A DNA stretch of 64,000 nt from a virus, in UHGV virus genome UHGV-0038492. One strand, 5' to 3'. Within the stretch, counting starts at the first letter, position 1. Each line of letters opens with the position of its first letter. This document shows positions 9,421 to 29,965 of this stretch, in pieces. The translations under genes were made by a program, and so were the position numbers. The notes below the pieces were generated by a model, which was not told the DNA's origin, ran no database searches, and saw only the letters and a list, made by a program, of their open reading frames with translations.

Positions 9421-9462
9421 CTCCTACCCTCTTAGAGGGTAGGAGTAGCACGTTTTTTTTTT
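9421..9462. terminator. bidirectional intrinsic terminator hairpin (CTCCTACCCT / AGGGTAGGAG, 10-bp stem)
   Basis: Perfect 10-bp stem 9421-9430 / 9436-9445 with 5-nt loop; T-run 9453-9462 on plus strand; on the minus strand the stem is followed by GTTATTTATTTTTTT; sits between convergent gene ends 9415 (+) and 9466 (-). Confidence 0.7.
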
Positions 9463-18713: not shown

Positions 18714-18762
18714 GAGAGAACCTTCGGGTTCTCTCCCTTCTCTTTTATTTTTTTTCTTTTTA
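18714..18762 (+). terminator. intrinsic terminator (GAGAGAACC / GGTTCTCTC stem, TTCG loop, long T-tract)
   Basis: 9-bp stem 18714-18722 / 18727-18735, tetraloop TTCG, followed by CCTTCTCTTTTATTTTTTTTCTTTTT. Confidence 0.85.
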
Positions 18763-18791
18763 CACCACGCTCCGTGAATATGGAGGTGGAC

Positions 18792-21296
18792 ATGTTAAAA
18801 GTTGAACGTATTGTACTTAAAGGATTTACCGGAATGGGATTACACGAAATCGAAACCTTCGATTTTACTATCCATTCCCCGACCACCATTATCCTCGGTG
18901 GTAACGGCTGCGGTAAGACCAGCTTACTGTCCGTGTTTCTACCTATCGCACCTTCGAAATCCGAATTCCGTGACGGGGGTTCCTACACCAATATCTGTTT
19001 GGTTAACGACCATCGTTACAAGTTTAAAGTTGCACGTAAAGGCAACTCACTGGTTTGCGATATCGAGAACCTGACGACGGGTACCAAAATCGTCGAGCAA
19101 GGTAATGCGAAAGTGTACAACTCTCGCGTGGAAGAAATCACGGGTATTACAAAAGAGATTAAAGAGTTACTGAACGGAGAAGTGCTTTTAACGGATGCAG
19201 GAACGGAACTGCGTCGTAAGTGGTTCTACCGTTTAAGTACATCAGACTTAACGTACGCGTTAGGTTTTTATCAACGTTTACGAAAAAACCTAACGATGTT
19301 AAACGGCGGTATTGAAATCACCAGCCGCAAAATTGCAGAGTTGCGTACCCGCGTGATTGATAACGAGGAAGAACGTCAGCAGTTAGCAACACGGTTAAAA
19401 GCATTAGAAGCGGATTTACGTGAACTCAACAAACAGATCGAACAGCTGCCAGGTCTGAATCGTGACGTTACGGTGGCAACGATTCAATCGCTATTGCTTA
19501 AAATCGAAGCACCGATTAATGCTATCTTGGAACACCGTGGCGGATTACCTACGGAAGAACAGGTAGAGGAAGCACGACGCGTTGAAGCCACTGCCCGTGA
19601 AGCGGTGGTCTCTGCTGAAACAGAGCTGTCTATGCTAAACAAAGATTTGTCTTTGTTGATGGACGAGTCTACCCGCCAAGATTACCTGATGCGAAATCAT
19701 GAAGGGTTAAAAAACACGGTTGCGAAACTGCGCGAGTTATTAAAGCAGTGGGACACCGAACACCTTTTCCCTGAACTGTTTGCAGAGACCGTTAACATCG
19801 ACCAGCTTAAAGCAGCGACGGATGCGCGTGTCTGGGGACAACGTTTAGGAACAACGCTGGACGCCATTAAGTCAACGGAGCGGTTGAACGTACTGGAAGA
19901 GAAGCTGTTGACCTTAGACCAAAACTCGTCTGGGTTGCGTGACCGACTACAACGCGTTGAAAACGTATTGCAGAACCTCAACCACGAACGGAATCACTAT
20001 TTGGAAACCGCCGAGGTTGATTGTCCGCAGTGTCAATTTAAATTCCGTCCGGGTGTGCGTCGATCGCTGCCTGAATTGGAAGAAGCCATTCGTGGGCAGA
20101 TGGAGCAACGTAATACGTTACAGACTCAGCTTGATTCCGTGTTGCGAGACCGTACGGAATTAGAATCGGACGTTAATTACATGCGTCAAGTACGGGAAAT
20201 CGTTTTAACGTATTCGAAAGACCCGGTATTGAGTTTGTTCTTTAAACGTCTCCAGGAGCGGAATGTCTTTACGGATAACCGCAGTCAGTTCGGCAGTTTG
20301 TGCGCGGAGTTCGATCGTGAACTTTATTCTGCAATTGAGTACCACGAAACGATACACCGTTTTGCTAAAGCGGAAAAAGAGTGGGAAAATGCAGTTGCAG
20401 CGGTAGGTAACGTTGACGGTGCACTACAGCAGAAAATTGCCTTCCAGCAGGAACGTTTGGGTAAGGCGACAGAAACGCTCTCAGAGCGCCGTAGAGAGCA
20501 CGCAGTTGCTAATGATACCTTTTGTTATCTAAACGAACTTAAAGCCACTGTAGACAATTTTAATGCGGTTTTTGAGCGTTTAGAGAACGATGTTAAGGTA
20601 ACATTAACCAACACGGTGGTCGAAACGTTATTAAACGCCCGAGAAAACAAGTTGGATGCGTTCACCACAGCACGGGAACGGTACCGTCAAATGGAAAACG
20701 AACTCAACCAACTTACTGCGTTAGAAAAGGAGTTATCAGATTTACAAGCGCAGCAATTTAATAACAAACTGATGATTCAAGCGTTCTCACCTGAGAAAGG
20801 GGTGTTACGCAAATACTTCTACAACGCTATCGTGAGAATCACGGAATTGATGACGCGGTATATCGAACAAGTCTGGACCTACCCTATGCGGGTCATGCCG
20901 TGTGACTTAACCGACGGTGACTTAGACTACACGTTCCCAGTGCAGTTGAAAACCCATCCTGAACCGGTACCTGACGTACGGAAAGGGTCGAAAGCGCAGC
21001 GAGCCATCTTTAATTTGATGTTTCGTTTAACCGCTTACAAGGCCCTGAAACTTCATCAGTATCCGCTACTGTTGGATGAACCGTCAGAAGGGATGGATGA
21101 AGAACACCGAAATAACCTCGTTGGGTTTATTAAAACCTTGGCGAATTCTGGTGAGTTCTCTCAGTTACTGGTGGTGTCTCACGAAGCAGAAATTCATTCA
21201 AAACTTAACGAAGCCGCATACTGTGTTATTGAACCTGAAGGCGTAACACTGCCTGCGGTTTACAACGAAGGAGTAAAAATTGTCTACGCAAACTGA
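18792..21296 (+). CDS. Rad50 / SbcC-like ABC ATPase with coiled coil and CxxC zinc hook (834 aa)
   Basis: Track ORF 18774-21296 trimmed to ATG 18792 preceded by GGAGG; N-terminal Walker A GGNGCGKTS; central coiled-coil-like region with CPQC; C-terminal Walker B LLLDEP and H-loop VVSHEA. Confidence 0.8.
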   Translation: MLKVERIVLKGFTGMGLHEIETFDFTIHSPTTIILGGNGCGKTSLLSVFLPIAPSKSEFRDGGSYTNICLVNDHRYKFKVARKGNSLVCDIENLTTGTKIVEQGNAKVYNSRVEEITGITKEIKELLNGEVLLTDAGTELRRKWFYRLSTSDLTYALGFYQRLRKNLTMLNGGIEITSRKIAELRTRVIDNEEERQQLATRLKALEADLRELNKQIEQLPGLNRDVTVATIQSLLLKIEAPINAILEHRGGLPTEEQVEEARRVEATAREAVVSAETELSMLNKDLSLLMDESTRQDYLMRNHEGLKNTVAKLRELLKQWDTEHLFPELFAETVNIDQLKAATDARVWGQRLGTTLDAIKSTERLNVLEEKLLTLDQNSSGLRDRLQRVENVLQNLNHERNHYLETAEVDCPQCQFKFRPGVRRSLPELEEAIRGQMEQRNTLQTQLDSVLRDRTELESDVNYMRQVREIVLTYSKDPVLSLFFKRLQERNVFTDNRSQFGSLCAEFDRELYSAIEYHETIHRFAKAEKEWENAVAAVGNVDGALQQKIAFQQERLGKATETLSERRREHAVANDTFCYLNELKATVDNFNAVFERLENDVKVTLTNTVVETLLNARENKLDAFTTARERYRQMENELNQLTALEKELSDLQAQQFNNKLMIQAFSPEKGVLRKYFYNAIVRITELMTRYIEQVWTYPMRVMPCDLTDGDLDYTFPVQLKTHPEPVPDVRKGSKAQRAIFNLMFRLTAYKALKLHQYPLLLDEPSEGMDEEHRNNLVGFIKTLANSGEFSQLLVVSHEAEIHSKLNEAAYCVIEPEGVTLPAVYNEGVKIVYAN

Positions 21297-21480
21297 TTGG
21301 TGGCGTCAGTTACTAAGCGTTTTAGGGTTTAGCGTCATGGTGCTGGTTGCCATTCTGTACGTGCTATTTTGTATAACGGCGATTTTATGGGTGGTCTTAG
21401 CGTACGCGATTAGACTCGCCTGGGGTTCAATTTGGCACCAACGCGAATGTGAGTGGCGGTGTGTTGGAGGGAAGTCATGA
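21280..21480 (+). CDS. small membrane protein (66 aa)
   Basis: TTG start preceded by AGGAG, overlapping the end of the ATPase gene; very hydrophobic, about two transmembrane segments. Confidence 0.45.
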   Translation: MSTQTDWWRQLLSVLGFSVMVLVAILYVLFCITAILWVVLAYAIRLAWGSIWHQRECEWRCVGGKS

Positions 21481-21587
21481 TTGAGGGTATTCTGTTAACA
21501 CTTGGGTCGTTGTGGATTATTGGGAAATCCCTCAACTGGCTGATTAAAAAGTACGGATGGGCTTTCAAAGGCTCTACGCACAGTTAA
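21477..21587 (+). CDS. micro membrane peptide (36 aa, MIEGILLTLGSLWIIGKSLNWLIKKYGWAFKGSTHS)
   Basis: ATG overlaps the preceding stop (ATGA); one predicted TM helix; too short for the track. Confidence 0.3.
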   Translation: MIEGILLTLGSLWIIGKSLNWLIKKYGWAFKGSTHS

Positions 21588-21595
21588 GTTAGAAC

Positions 21596-21625
21596 CCCCT
21601 CCTGGGTAACTGGGAGGGCGTTTTA
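21596..21625 (+). terminator. weak hairpin terminator candidate (CCCTCC / GGAGGG + GTTTT)
   Basis: 6-bp stem with 10-nt loop and a short T-run. Confidence 0.3.
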
Positions 21626-21637
21626 CGAGGGAAAACC

Positions 21638-21766
21638 ATGACTGTTGTCAATACTACCAATGCTGCAATTGGCGCTTTATACAACGCGGAACTAACATGG
21701 GGTGCGGGATTTATTACCGTACTGCTTCTTGCCGCAGCCGCTTTTATCATTGGACGTTGGTTTTAA
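21638..21766 (+). CDS. micro membrane peptide (42 aa, MTVVNTTNAAIGALYNAELTWGAGFITVLLLAAAAFIIGRWF)
   Basis: ATG preceded by GAGGGAAAACC; one predicted TM helix. Confidence 0.35.
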   Translation: MTVVNTTNAAIGALYNAELTWGAGFITVLLLAAAAFIIGRWF

Positions 21767-21799
21767 TTTCAATCTTTTTGCGTCTGTAAGGTCTGATAA

Positions 21800-22243
21800 A
21801 TGGAAATTTATTTGTTGAACGCACTTTCTAAAATCGGTGAAGAACAAGCGAAAGATTTACTCGCACTTCATTACCGTTACTTAGATCACCAAGCAACGAT
21901 GCTGAAAATCAAAACCGCTGTACCGAAATTAAACGTGCGTCAACTGATCGAAGGCAACTGTGTTGTTCTGATTTATATCGACGATGTTGCGGTGGGTTAT
22001 TGCAGTTACCGTAATCGCAACGGGGTACTCAAAATTCGTTCGTTATACGTGCTACCCGATTACCGTCAGCGCGGGGTAATGAAAGAAATCTTCAAAGCGA
22101 TAGCCGCTGATGAAACATTCGGTGAAATTGCCATTGGGATGTACACGAAGTGCAAAGAAGCGAAAGAGTATTTCATTCGTCGTGGCTACAAAGCAACCTA
22201 TTCTCACGATAAAGAATGGGTGGATTTCAGCAAAACTTTCTAA
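21800..22243 (+). CDS. GNAT-family N-acetyltransferase (147 aa)
   Basis: LKIRSLYVLPDYRQRGVMKEIFKAI resembles the GNAT acetyl-CoA-binding motif region. Confidence 0.7.
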   Translation: MEIYLLNALSKIGEEQAKDLLALHYRYLDHQATMLKIKTAVPKLNVRQLIEGNCVVLIYIDDVAVGYCSYRNRNGVLKIRSLYVLPDYRQRGVMKEIFKAIAADETFGEIAIGMYTKCKEAKEYFIRRGYKATYSHDKEWVDFSKTF

Positions 22244-22886: not shown

Positions 22887-22993
22887 TGTCTAAAACGTAT
22901 ATAGCGATTTTGGTTGAGTTGGCGATTGGCGGAACGCGGTTTATCCCTGTGCATCAATTATGCTTACCTCACTCGGTAAGACCGTTATGTTAA
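22886..22993 (+). CDS. small ORF (35 aa)
   Basis: ATG overlaps the preceding stop (TAATG); RBS AAAGGAA; overlaps the start of the macro-domain gene; real-gene status uncertain. Confidence 0.25.
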   Translation: MSKTYIAILVELAIGGTRFIPVHQLCLPHSVRPLC

Positions 22994-23484
22994 CGATACT
23001 TCCAGAATCGGATATTGACAACGACCTGTTTAATGCGCCTGAGCGCTTCAAGGTCGTTACGATAAATTGCGTAGGGGCAATGGGTCGGGGTATCGCTTTA
23101 GCGTGCAGAGAACGCTATCCTGGGCTTTATCAGGACTACCGAGAACGTTGCTTCGCTAACGAAATACGAATAGGGAATGTGTATGTTTATCCCGAGGAAA
23201 ACTGCATTCTCTTACCAACCAAAACACATTGGAAACTAAAATCCCAGGTTTCTTATGTTATCGCGGGTATCACCGCGTTGGCAGATGCCGCAGAAAATTT
23301 AGAGGGTGGGGTGGCTTTACCGCCGTTAGGGATGGCTAACGGTTGGTTGACAAAAGCTGAACGTCAACAAATCTTTTTGTTTATCGAAAAGAAACTCGTA
23401 CCGAGGAGACAACATTACCGTTTCTATTTACCCGATACGCTTTACCAAGAAGCAAAACCTTTAATTCCAAACCTTTTTAAATAG
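22987..23484 (+). CDS. putative macro-domain (ADP-ribose binding / hydrolase) protein
   Basis: VVTINCVGAMGRGIALAC resembles the Gly-rich ADP-ribose-binding loop of macro domains and LPPLGMANGW the second conserved Gly motif; alternative start at 22960; assignment is motif-level only. Confidence 0.5.
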   Translation: MLTILPESDIDNDLFNAPERFKVVTINCVGAMGRGIALACRERYPGLYQDYRERCFANEIRIGNVYVYPEENCILLPTKTHWKLKSQVSYVIAGITALADAAENLEGGVALPPLGMANGWLTKAERQQIFLFIEKKLVPRRQHYRFYLPDTLYQEAKPLIPNLFK

Positions 23485-23584
23485 ATATTATCATTAGGGC
23501 ACACAACAAAGGAGTACCAGCTGTCCGCGCCGTGATTTCGTTCTACGGAACACGGAAATGTATAAATCCAACTGGAGAACTAGT

Positions 23585-24271
23585 ATGTTTCGTACCTTCT
23601 TTCTTTTACTGGTAACACTTTTCGCGTTTAACGCATACGCATCCAAATCCGCACCCAGTGCCAAACACCATCGTGAATTCGAAATGATTCAAGACCGTTT
23701 CGAACGTGTAAAACCGTTGATTGTGGAAATCTCCCGAAAGCAGGGTGTTGATCCTAAGTTGATGACCACGCTAATCTATCGAGAATCACGGTTTAATCCG
23801 AAGGCGTATAATCGAACGTCTAAAGCGCACAGTCTGGTTCAGATGCTACCGAGCACAAAGCGTAATTTACTAAAACTCTACGGCAACGAAATCGGACTTA
23901 GTCGTAACGCGGATTTGTATAATCCTCGTAATGCGGTGCTATTGGCTTCCGTCTACGTTAAACATTTAGAAAAGGGGTTGACTAAACGACTCAAACGCAA
24001 GCCCACTATTGCAGAAATTGCATTGGCTTATCACTGGGGTGAAAGTGGTGCACACGCCAGGATTAAAAGCAAGTCTCGGGCGGCACAACGAGAAATGGCG
24101 AGCTTTATGAAAGATGCAACGTTCTACAGTGCGAAAATCGACAAGCCTGTAGCATCTCGTCAGCTTGCGTTTGCGAAGAAACCAGAACGCCAGATTCAGT
24201 TAGCGGAAGTTAACCGAATTTGGGATACGATAAACACCAGTTTTCCATTTAAACAAGGAGTCACCCTTTGA
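23585..24271 (+). CDS. secreted lytic transglycosylase (SLT-domain, candidate endolysin)
   Basis: Track ORF 23558-24271 trimmed to ATG 23585 preceded by GGAGAA; signal peptide MFRTFFLLLVTLFAFNAYA; SLT family-1 signature YRESRFNPKAY...AHSLVQM. Confidence 0.8.
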   Translation: MFRTFFLLLVTLFAFNAYASKSAPSAKHHREFEMIQDRFERVKPLIVEISRKQGVDPKLMTTLIYRESRFNPKAYNRTSKAHSLVQMLPSTKRNLLKLYGNEIGLSRNADLYNPRNAVLLASVYVKHLEKGLTKRLKRKPTIAEIALAYHWGESGAHARIKSKSRAAQREMASFMKDATFYSAKIDKPVASRQLAFAKKPERQIQLAEVNRIWDTINTSFPFKQGVTL

Positions 24272-24777: not shown

Positions 24778-24783
24778 TACTTG

Positions 24784-24840: not shown

Positions 24841-25320
24841 ATGTTGAAGTTTATCTGGCGTTACCCAACCCGCTTTTGGTTCGTGGTATTAGAGGTAATC
24901 ACCGTTCTACTGTTAGTGACGTTCGTAAACGTCCCTACGAAACAAATGGTGATTTTCTGTGTATTCGTGGCTATACCGCTGTGGGTGTTTGCAAAGATTA
25001 TTAAGTTTTGCATGATAAGCTGGGCGAACTACACCTGTCCATTTAAACCCAGAGAAATCATGAATTGGCTGATGTATATCGAAGACCGTTTACCCGCTCA
25101 GTCTAAAACACTGGGCTGGGAATCGATGTTGGATATTGCGCTAGAAACGAATGCAAAATTCCCTGGGTCAAAGAATCCCTATTTGCTGCTGGCCGTTATT
25201 GTTGCCCAGCAGAAACGTGCGGGTGAACGCTGGCTACCGGAAGAAGCGAAAGACTATATTCGTAAGCACCCGAAGGCTTTCTATTCCGTAGGTCAATGGC
25301 GTAACCTCCCACTCTTTTAA
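24841..25320 (+). CDS. membrane protein (159 aa, two N-terminal TM helices)
   Basis: RBS AAAGGAG; hydrophobic segments FWFVVLEVITVLLLVTFV and MVIFCVFVAIPLWVFAKII. Confidence 0.7.
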   Translation: MLKFIWRYPTRFWFVVLEVITVLLLVTFVNVPTKQMVIFCVFVAIPLWVFAKIIKFCMISWANYTCPFKPREIMNWLMYIEDRLPAQSKTLGWESMLDIALETNAKFPGSKNPYLLLAVIVAQQKRAGERWLPEEAKDYIRKHPKAFYSVGQWRNLPLF

Positions 25321-26326: not shown

Positions 26327-26360
26327 CCCTACTCCTCCGGGAGTAGGGTTATTCTTTTTT
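26327..26360 (+). terminator. intrinsic terminator, CCCTACTCC family
   Basis: 9-bp stem CCCTACTCC (26327-26335) / GGAGTAGGG (26340-26348), 4-nt loop, followed by TTATTCTTTTTT. Confidence 0.8.
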
Positions 26361-29960: not shown

Positions 29961-29965
29961 CAACG

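Follow-up and report, generated by a model that had tools for sequence, protein, structure and literature searches.

Directly behind the gene for an SbcC/Rad50-like ATPase, the virus genome UHGV-0038492 contains three open reading frames (ORFs) of only 66, 36 and 42 amino acids (aa), here named A, B and D. The locus raises two questions, i.e. whether such short frames are genes at all and, if they are, what three tiny hydrophobic peptides contribute to the infection. The stretch analysed, referred to as the window, comprises 64,000 nt of this genome, which belongs to an SPN3US-like jumbo phage (Chimalliviridae); this family, with Seoulvirus, Erskinevirus, Machinavirus as well as phiKZ, comprises the nucleus-forming jumbo phages. 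The features of the locus are listed in Table 1.

Coding constraint and gene starts

Evidence for genuine genes is given by the comparison with four relatives from IMG/VR, of which two are nearly identical to the window (L008 and L009) and two are more diverged (L010 and L011; contigs up to 225 kb), the C-terminal part of SbcC in the latter two being around 90 % identical to the window protein. All three frames are intact in each of the four. Between the window group and L010/L011, the ratio of non-synonymous to synonymous substitution rates (dN/dS, Nei–Gojobori) was 0.26–0.32 for A, 0.28–0.48 for B and 0.08–0.20 for D, with around 0.05 for the adjacent GNAT gene and with synonymous sites near saturation (dS around 1 or above). 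When the observed nucleotide differences were scattered randomly over each ORF (5000 trials per ORF), amino-acid changes as few as those observed arose in 1/5000 trials for A, 112/5000 for B and 0/5000 for D. Of the six alternative forward frames, five contain stop codons in both genomes, the exception being the +2 frame of D, which is open and poorly conserved (14/41 residues). Moreover, the sequence motifs of the peptides are kept across genera in which SbcC is merely 52–58 % identical. Taken together, A, B and D are almost certainly genuine protein-coding genes; the preliminary description of the locus had named a lack of coding constraint in related phages as the observation that would speak against it, and both the dN/dS ratios and the permutation show constraint.

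That the frames are chance openings or decaying, non-functional remnants, as could be suggested by their shortness, by the TTG start of A, by the NCBI record of a window-type phage in which A is called from an internal ATG (47 aa; P0025) and by the absence from the window of three genes that relatives carry at this locus, is very improbable and effectively refuted by the conservation analysis, i.e. by frames that are intact with dN/dS below 1 in all relatives, by motifs conserved between genera and by SPAsTU and pEa_SNUABM_29, which have an ATG where A of the window has TTG.

Each of the three ORFs has a Shine–Dalgarno sequence. The preliminary description had reported hydrophobic ORFs of these lengths and positions, and all of this was seen (grand average of hydropathicity 0.82 for A, 0.43 for B and 1.18 for D), as were the ATGA stop–start overlap of A and B at 21477 and the GAGGGA ahead of the ATG of D; its reading as genuine genes for very small membrane peptides is likewise supported. 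The coupling proposed for all three holds for SbcC and A, since A starts inside the SbcC gene with an overlap of 17 nt, and for A and B, but not for D, which follows B after 50 nt and behind a hairpin. The TTG start and the AGGAG of A do overlap the ATPase gene, but they lie within its last codons and leave the stop codon untouched.

The TTG start is backed by conserved N-terminal residues (TDWWR, RDWGR, KGWR), and the 47-aa annotation of A is probably too short; Asesino, like the window, begins A with TTG, and SPN3US with ATG. As for the idea that such peptides are missed by annotation, homologues of A and D are annotated in most of the GenBank relatives, and it is the gene of B (34–36 aa) that was overlooked in SPN3US (JN641803, 171588–171689) and Asesino (KX397364, 173590–173691), being annotated in phiEaH2, Stratton, SPAsTU and pEa_SNUABM_29.

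Predicted membrane topology

Judged by their sequences, A, B and D are very probably integral membrane proteins, and composition suggests that all three would insert into the host cytoplasmic membrane. Residues 10–44 of A form an uncharged stretch of 35 aa with basic residues on either flank, which is over-long for one ordinary membrane span and barely enough for two, followed by a basic C-terminal tail (charge +4/-2) with an R-x-CEWR motif kept in the window clade, phiEaH2 and Seoulvirus. From this composition, A would be either a tight helical hairpin with both ends in the cytoplasm (N-in/C-in), with which the basic flanks are compatible, or one long helix.

Peptide B has an acidic N-terminal end, an apolar stretch of 13 aa, a lysine at position 17 and an amphipathic, basic and aromatic tail (..WLIKKYGWAFKG..); across the family there are one acidic residue at the N-terminal end, 12–14 apolar residues and a conserved K/R at 16–17, and the amphipathic tail is rich in W, K and F, with a net charge of +4 in the window and SPN3US. 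B may accordingly be pictured, again by composition, as a short N-out anchor continued by a cationic, aromatic interfacial helix. In D, an 18-aa uncharged, slightly acidic N-terminal tail precedes a transmembrane segment of 21 aa and the C-terminus RWF, and its family shares a tail of 18–24 aa with acidic but no basic residues, an apolar segment of 19–21 aa and an (R)WF end.

A clade-specific cassette between SbcC and GNAT

Because megablast with this region gave zero matches among 50,697 phage records, relatives among isolated phages were reachable only at the protein level. The window SbcC is 69 % identical to Asesino gp207, 68 % to the phiEaH2 protein and around 58 % to SPN3US gp186 (tblastn), with phiKZ gp165 as a more distant relative; its match to the Pfam family SMC_N scores under the curated cut-off. 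The small genes have homologues at the corresponding place in Asesino, phiEaH2, Stratton, SPN3US, SPAsTU, pEa_SNUABM_29, pEa_SNUABM_6 and pEa_SNUABM_4, where SbcC and a conserved GNAT gene, itself syntenic in all relatives, enclose a cassette of as many as six small genes. The families were labelled A to F in this analysis. Family A has 49–66 aa; family B (32–46 aa) is marked by the motif ..W.WII..KGWAF.G. and family D (42–43 aa) by MT.VN...W.F; family C (65–74 aa) has two hydrophobic stretches, most members ending in ..PP.LRDPAYD.RE; family E (33–39 aa) ends in ..ALTQGWF; and family F (76–92 aa) is soluble with a very basic C-terminal end.

All six genes are found in SPN3US and SPAsTU (Seoulvirus), A, B, D, E and F in pEa_SNUABM_29, A, B, C, E and F in Erskinevirus and Machinavirus, and only A, B and D in the window clade, no homologue of C, E or F being detected across the 64 kb of the window. 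Every cassette-bearing genome examined (window clade, Seoulvirus, Erskinevirus and Machinavirus) has both A and B, the starts of which overlap or abut the end of the upstream gene, with the exception of L010/L011, in which B begins 11 nt after A. The cassette, of which the window carries a reduced version, has A and B as its invariant, coupled core, and C, D, E and F are patchy among genera, as accessory genes would be. A treatment of D and E as interchangeable 'WF-ended' paralogues within a universal core was dropped, as homology between the two was not established; they are not regarded as equivalent because their charge distributions are opposite, predicting opposite orientations.

Peptide A matches phrog_16515 (E 3e-6; residues 1–60 against profile positions 1–60 of 62) and B matches phrog_13448 (E 6.8e-14; residues 1–34 against positions 6–41 of 43), both PHROGs of unknown function, with D reaching phrog_29196 at an E-value of only 0.64. 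The homologues of A, which include SPN3US gp187 and Asesino gp208, are 33–39 % identical in the phage-database matches. B is 50–65 % identical to its relatives (SPN3US 53 %), and its tblastn matches, in 33 phage records, come from jumbo-phage genomes with the exception of one unannotated 10.6-kb record, which matches weakly. For D, tblastn gave no match among the phage records, and its homologues (SPN3US gp189, SPAsTU and pEa_SNUABM_29; around 40 % identity, 10 invariant alignment columns) were found via syntenic loci and a profile search.

A search of 5.8 billion proteins returned 34 clusters for A, 11 for B and 19 for D/E, and an exhaustive profile search of 1.84 billion representative proteins, with eight clusters for A, agrees with this picture. 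The families occur almost only on contigs of jumbo-phage size (the largest 220–250 kb), and every source names their members 'hypothetical protein'. The A, B and D families are confined to the SPN3US-like clade of jumbo phages. The exact sequence of D (P0053) is present on 565 public contigs, some of them in Salmonella and E. coli assemblies, and the window therefore represents a common, uncultured enterobacterial jumbo phage.

In Derbicusvirus (Phobos and pEa_SNUABM_38), small hydrophobic ORFs are likewise coupled to the end of SbcC (L013 5007–5300; L014 5021–5436), and further on a hydrophobic ORF of 46–48 aa is followed by a protein of 99–100 aa with an extremely basic C-terminal end (..KKKRLKNQRRRRKTKAMRKK), a pair (L013 6179–6618; L014 6311–6753) that echoes families C and F in arrangement. 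In hhalign comparisons, the profiles of D and B showed no homology to the equivalently placed small ORFs of Derbicusvirus, which makes the latter positional analogues only. No comparable small transmembrane ORF follows SbcC in phiKZ, Goslar or Eowyn.

At the 3' end of gene E in the relatives, the codons of the invariant ..ALTQGWF and stop form a hairpin, i.e. CCTTGC-ATTGAC-GCAAGG in SPN3US and CTTTGCG-TTAA-CGCAGGG in Asesino, followed by TGGTTTTAA (L003 6170–6202, L001 6075–6102, L005 6020–6050). A terminator-like element inside the coding sequence might explain why the end of this peptide is so conserved.

Table 1. Features of the SbcC–A–B–D locus and of the genes downstream (window positions)
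Feature	Position	Strand	Remarks
Terminator-like hairpin	18714..18765	+	GAGAGAACC-TTCG-GGTTCTCTC and long T-run; upstream edge of the SbcC–A–B unit
SbcC/Rad50-like SMC ATPase gene	18774..21296	+	840 aa from GTG at 18774; TGA at 21294-21296
TATG motif	18777..18780	+	Between terminator and SbcC start; candidate phiKZ late-type promoter
Micro-ORF A	21280..21480	+	66 aa, TTG start; AGGAG at 21269-21273, 6 nt upstream of start
Micro-ORF B	21477..21587	+	36 aa, ATG start; GGAGGG at 21466-21471; ATGA overlap with A stop
Hairpin between B and D	21597..21618	+	CCCTCCTGG-GTAA-CTGGGAGGG, then CGTTTTAC; splits A/B from D
Micro-ORF D	21638..21766	+	42 aa, ATG start; GAGGGA at 21627-21632
GNAT acetyltransferase gene	21800..22243	+	Pfam Acetyltransf_1/7/10, phrog_3810; downstream boundary of the cassette
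Macro-domain-like protein gene	22960-23484		phrog_335; Pfam Macro E 1.4e-3, under cut-off
SLT lytic transglycosylase gene	23558..24271	+	Pfam SLT 4e-14; Sec signal peptide (..FAFNAYA|SK)
159-aa protein gene	24841..25320	+	Two N-terminal transmembrane segments; two genes past SLT

Hairpins and proposed transcription units

Along the + strand, the gene block is interrupted at intervals by G+C-rich hairpins carrying T-rich tails, a class to which the hairpin between B and D belongs. SbcC, A and B are flanked by two such terminator-like hairpins (Table 1), and the next one beyond lies at 24782, with D heading the stretch in between. On structural grounds, this suggests two transcription units, i.e. 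SbcC–A–B on the one hand and D, GNAT, a 78-aa ORF, a 124-aa ORF, the macro-domain gene, SLT and a 169-aa ORF on the other.

The hairpin in the 50-nt spacer between B and D is probably a weak terminator or a stabilizer of the 3' end. For the 66 nt that contain it, the folding energy is -26.9 kcal/mol (z = -3.5 relative to shuffles), and L010/L011 keep a re-shaped hairpin at this spot; the window has the hairpin-containing spacer where relatives have gene C. The idea that this hairpin is a remnant of the 3' terminus of gene E was considered and rejected, since the similarity is limited to 'hairpin + GTTTTA + Shine–Dalgarno' and the gene order does not fit.

Upstream, the hairpin ahead of SbcC, with its CTTCGG loop and T-run, is kept at the same position in all relatives (L001–L013). 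By homology, SbcC starts at the ATG at 18792 (MLKVERI). A TATG is kept in the spacer before it in the window, L008–L011, Erskinevirus, Seoulvirus and Machinavirus, its contexts after the hairpin being GAATATGG, CTTTATGG, GGATATG and GATTATG, depending on the lineage, and the leader of the window clade is shortened, with a distance of 11 nt from TATG to ATG. TATG is the late-promoter motif of the non-virion RNA polymerase of phiKZ (PMC7598289), and the conserved copy before SbcC is a possible, albeit weak, candidate for a promoter of this type, as the motif has 4 nt only. A k-mer search of the window for a recurrent AT-rich early-promoter motif returned none, only T-runs and hairpin arms, and neither Rfam nor a tRNA scan gave any match in the region.

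Across the window, G+C-rich hairpins, most of them T-tailed, were located at 9421, 15160, 18052, 18714, 21597, 24782, 26327 and 26937, and further ones at 29965, 35303, 37198, 39907, 46261, 50091 and 50992. Those at 26327, 26937 and 46261 have the near-identical arms CCCTACTCC / GGAGTAGGG, and the 10-mer GGAGTAGGGT occurs five times in the window, both strands counted; the hairpins with shared arms look like a repeated terminator module.

The 33-nt spacer between D and GNAT (21767–21799; TTTCAATCTTTTTGCGTCTGTAAGGTCTGATAA) is far more conserved between the window group and L010/L011 than the synonymous sites of the flanking genes and may contain a site that regulates GNAT.

Downstream genes and a candidate lysis region

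The SLT protein encoded downstream is a homologue of SPN3US gp198, a 'putative endolysin' (54 % identity by tblastn), and its cleavable signal peptide is conserved. The gene after it encodes an acidic soluble protein and starts in overlap with the SLT stop; next comes the 159-aa protein with its two transmembrane segments, the positional counterpart of which is SPN3US gp200 (86 aa, two hydrophobic stretches, basic C-terminal end; gp198–gp200 locus, L018 4025–5655). The lysis cassette of phiKZ consists of the i-/o-spanins gp141/gp141.1, the holin gp142 with one transmembrane segment, the regulator gp143 and the endolysin gp144, as established by experiment, including lambda S-amber complementation and dinitrophenol addition in the case of gp142 (PMC12894885). 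The SLT protein, the acidic protein and the two-transmembrane protein form the more conventional candidate for a lysis cassette in the window, and by position the 159-aa protein is a better holin candidate than A. No spanin-like genes were recognized near this SLT cassette. The macro-domain-like and GNAT genes, both standing for typical host-modification or anti-defence activities, sit between the micro-ORFs and SLT.

Possible functions of A, B and D

The best explanation as a whole is, in our view, that A, B and D are clade-specific genes whose products insert into the membrane and form an accessory envelope module, and we put its probability at roughly 0.45. In this proposal, the trio would be made in mid or late infection and would modulate the host envelope, i.e. 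membrane energization or permeability and hence the timing of lysis, or else the entry of competing DNA; it would be neither the holin itself nor act on DNA. The role itself, an inner-membrane module for envelope control or lysis timing, is a tentative and rather doubtful part of the explanation, in favour of which stands the position of the genes in the same-strand block as the endolysin with its signal peptide, 2.1 kb downstream.

Several points weigh against it. The arguments for this role are context and analogy, and neither Pfam, PHROGs, NCBIfam nor PADLOC has a holin, immunity or defence family matching A, B or D; PADLOC gave no match at E-values up to 1, and Pfam and NCBIfam nothing significant, for these three or for C, E and F of the relatives. 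The suggestions of the preliminary description that the peptides are holin-like, membrane-depolarizing or immunity factors are thus neither supported nor contradicted. AlphaFold2 predicts A as one helix (residues 4–63; pLDDT, i.e. predicted local distance difference test, 80.7; 13-sequence alignment), a model that is not decisive between hairpin and single pass. The hairpin between B and D has a weak T-tail, and a promoter for D was not identified. Finally, at least 13 overlapping or abutting junctions exist among the window ORFs of 100 aa or more; because such junctions are common in this genome, the coupling of A to SbcC may be mere compaction, and coupling alone is a weak sign of a functional link. 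The probabilities of the readings weighed here are not meant to sum to one, as the module overlaps with the holin and exclusion readings that follow and other targets in the host membrane are possible.

It is tempting to see in A a class II-like holin or pinholin with two short transmembrane segments in N-in/C-in orientation, which would collapse the proton-motive force and thereby activate the Sec-exported SLT endolysin, B and D being antiholins or modifiers of timing. In size, hydrophobic core and charged tail, A conforms to the general description of holins, and a small-hole holin would suffice, given the conserved, cleavable signal peptide of the endolysin candidate. The ORFs share the same-strand block of the endolysin, D heads the stretch that contains SLT, and holins are in general very diverse, often without any family match. 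However, the best match to a holin family (Pfam, PHROGs and NCBIfam searched) was PF07332 at an E-value of 0.58, far under the cut-off, around 2.1 kb with GNAT, a possible 78-aa ORF, the 124-aa ORF and the macro-domain gene lie between A and SLT, and A has no polar loop between its putative transmembrane segments. B (36 aa) and D (42 aa, with a C-terminal end of three residues) are far under known holin sizes, and to our knowledge no known holin is as small as either. In addition, gp198–gp199–gp200, with the two-transmembrane protein two genes past SLT, mirrors the holin/regulator/endolysin arrangement of phiKZ, and because the SLT trio is the likelier lysis cassette the odds of A as a holin are lowered, leaving this reading unlikely.

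Less probable again is a tether, in which A, co-translated with SbcC, anchors a Rad50/Mre11-like complex to the inner membrane, with B and D as auxiliaries. The idea itself is in print, SPN3US gp187 (family A) having been remarked as a small transmembrane protein and possible membrane anchor of SbcCD, following the earlier proposal that T4 gp47.1 anchors gp46/47 (PMC5105663). In its favour, A begins within the end of SbcC or abuts it throughout the window clade, Erskinevirus, Seoulvirus and Machinavirus, and Derbicusvirus has a non-homologous small transmembrane ORF in the same coupled position; in T4, the gene of the 46-aa predicted membrane protein 47.1 overlaps gene 47 (SbcD) by 4 nt, and the conserved R-x-CEWR in the tail of A could be a binding site. 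On the other hand, phiKZ, Goslar and Eowyn have SbcC without a small transmembrane ORF behind it, overlapping junctions are common in this genome, A is without homology to T4 gp47.1 (hhalign probability 0.5 %), and B and D are left unexplained. Moreover, DNA replication in this family takes place in a protein-walled nucleus, away from the membrane, and a reason for such a phage to keep a recombination nuclease there is hard to find.

Superinfection exclusion, in which the peptides would alter the inner membrane such that DNA entry of a second phage is blocked, as by T4 Imm, is similarly improbable. T4 imm (83 aa, 'immunity to superinfection' in the T4 record) also lies within a cluster of DNA-metabolism genes, and a patchy, fast-evolving cassette content is typical of genes for competition. 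A and T4 Imm, however, gave an hhalign probability of 0.3 %, no exclusion family was matched in PHROGs or PADLOC, and such genes are normally early, whereas no AT-rich early-promoter motif was found in the window and the only conserved motif before SbcC is the late-type TATG.

Two further ideas, to which even jointly we give little credence, are that A, B and D are an unrecognized minimal lysis-timing system for the Sec-exported endolysin, or that A, together with B, tethers part of the SbcC/Rad50-like nuclease to the host inner membrane at the site of DNA entry, outside the nucleus, where it would destroy linear ends of incoming competitor or host DNA. If true, the latter would mean a membrane-anchored nuclease as superinfection exclusion in a nucleus-forming phage.

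Implications for annotation and genetics

The genes discussed here are already public as hypothetical proteins and in PHROGs, and family A has already been remarked upon in print (PMC5105663). What our analysis adds is the definition of a clade-specific cassette whose conserved core is the coupled pair of micro-genes A and B behind SbcC, the fixing of the true starts with the recovery of the B gene overlooked in the SPN3US and Asesino annotations, and the separation of this cassette from the likelier lysis genes beside the exported SLT endolysin. It yields candidates for genetics in SPN3US and the Erwinia phages, i.e. gp187 and the unannotated B ORF versus gp198–gp200. SbcC of SPN3US (gp186) is essential (Thomas et al., PMC5105663). 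Of everything encoded by jumbo-phage genomes, small membrane proteins are understood least; no new principle emerges, and the value lies in annotation and in the generation of hypotheses.

Comparison with known systems

Small hydrophobic phage proteins with comparable features are known from several systems. Class II holins and pinholins, e.g. S68 of phage 21, resemble A in their 60–70 aa, a core able to form two transmembrane segments and a charged C-terminal tail; A differs from them in matching no holin family, in lacking the polar loop between the helices and in not lying beside the endolysin. In phiKZ, the holin gp142 combines a single transmembrane segment with a large cytoplasmic domain, and only gp143 stands between it and the endolysin gp144, a position near the endolysin that is filled in the window by another protein than A. 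T4 gp47.1 is, like A, the product of a tiny hydrophobic ORF overlapping a gene for an SbcCD-type nuclease; its gene lies upstream of SbcD, whereas A lies downstream of SbcC, and the anchor role of gp47.1 is itself a proposal.

The major coat protein of phage Pf3 (44 aa) is the textbook substrate of YidC-dependent, Sec-independent membrane insertion. D shares with it the size, the uncharged acidic N-terminal tail of around 18 aa, one transmembrane segment of around 20 aa and the R-W...F end, in the absence of homology by hhalign; by analogy with this layout, D may insert without Sec, via YidC. The Pf3 coat belongs to the virion of a filamentous phage, and the likeness concerns the insertion route of D only and not its function.

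The closest systems are those of the isolated SPN3US-like phages, i.e. SPN3US gp187, its B ORF and gp189, Asesino gp208, and phiEaH2 AFQ96656 and AFQ96657, which are direct homologues at the same position after SbcC. The window differs from these phages in carrying A, B and D only and in its low identity, but shares with them the sizes, the overlaps and the motifs CEWR (A), GWAF (B) and MT.VN...W.F (D).

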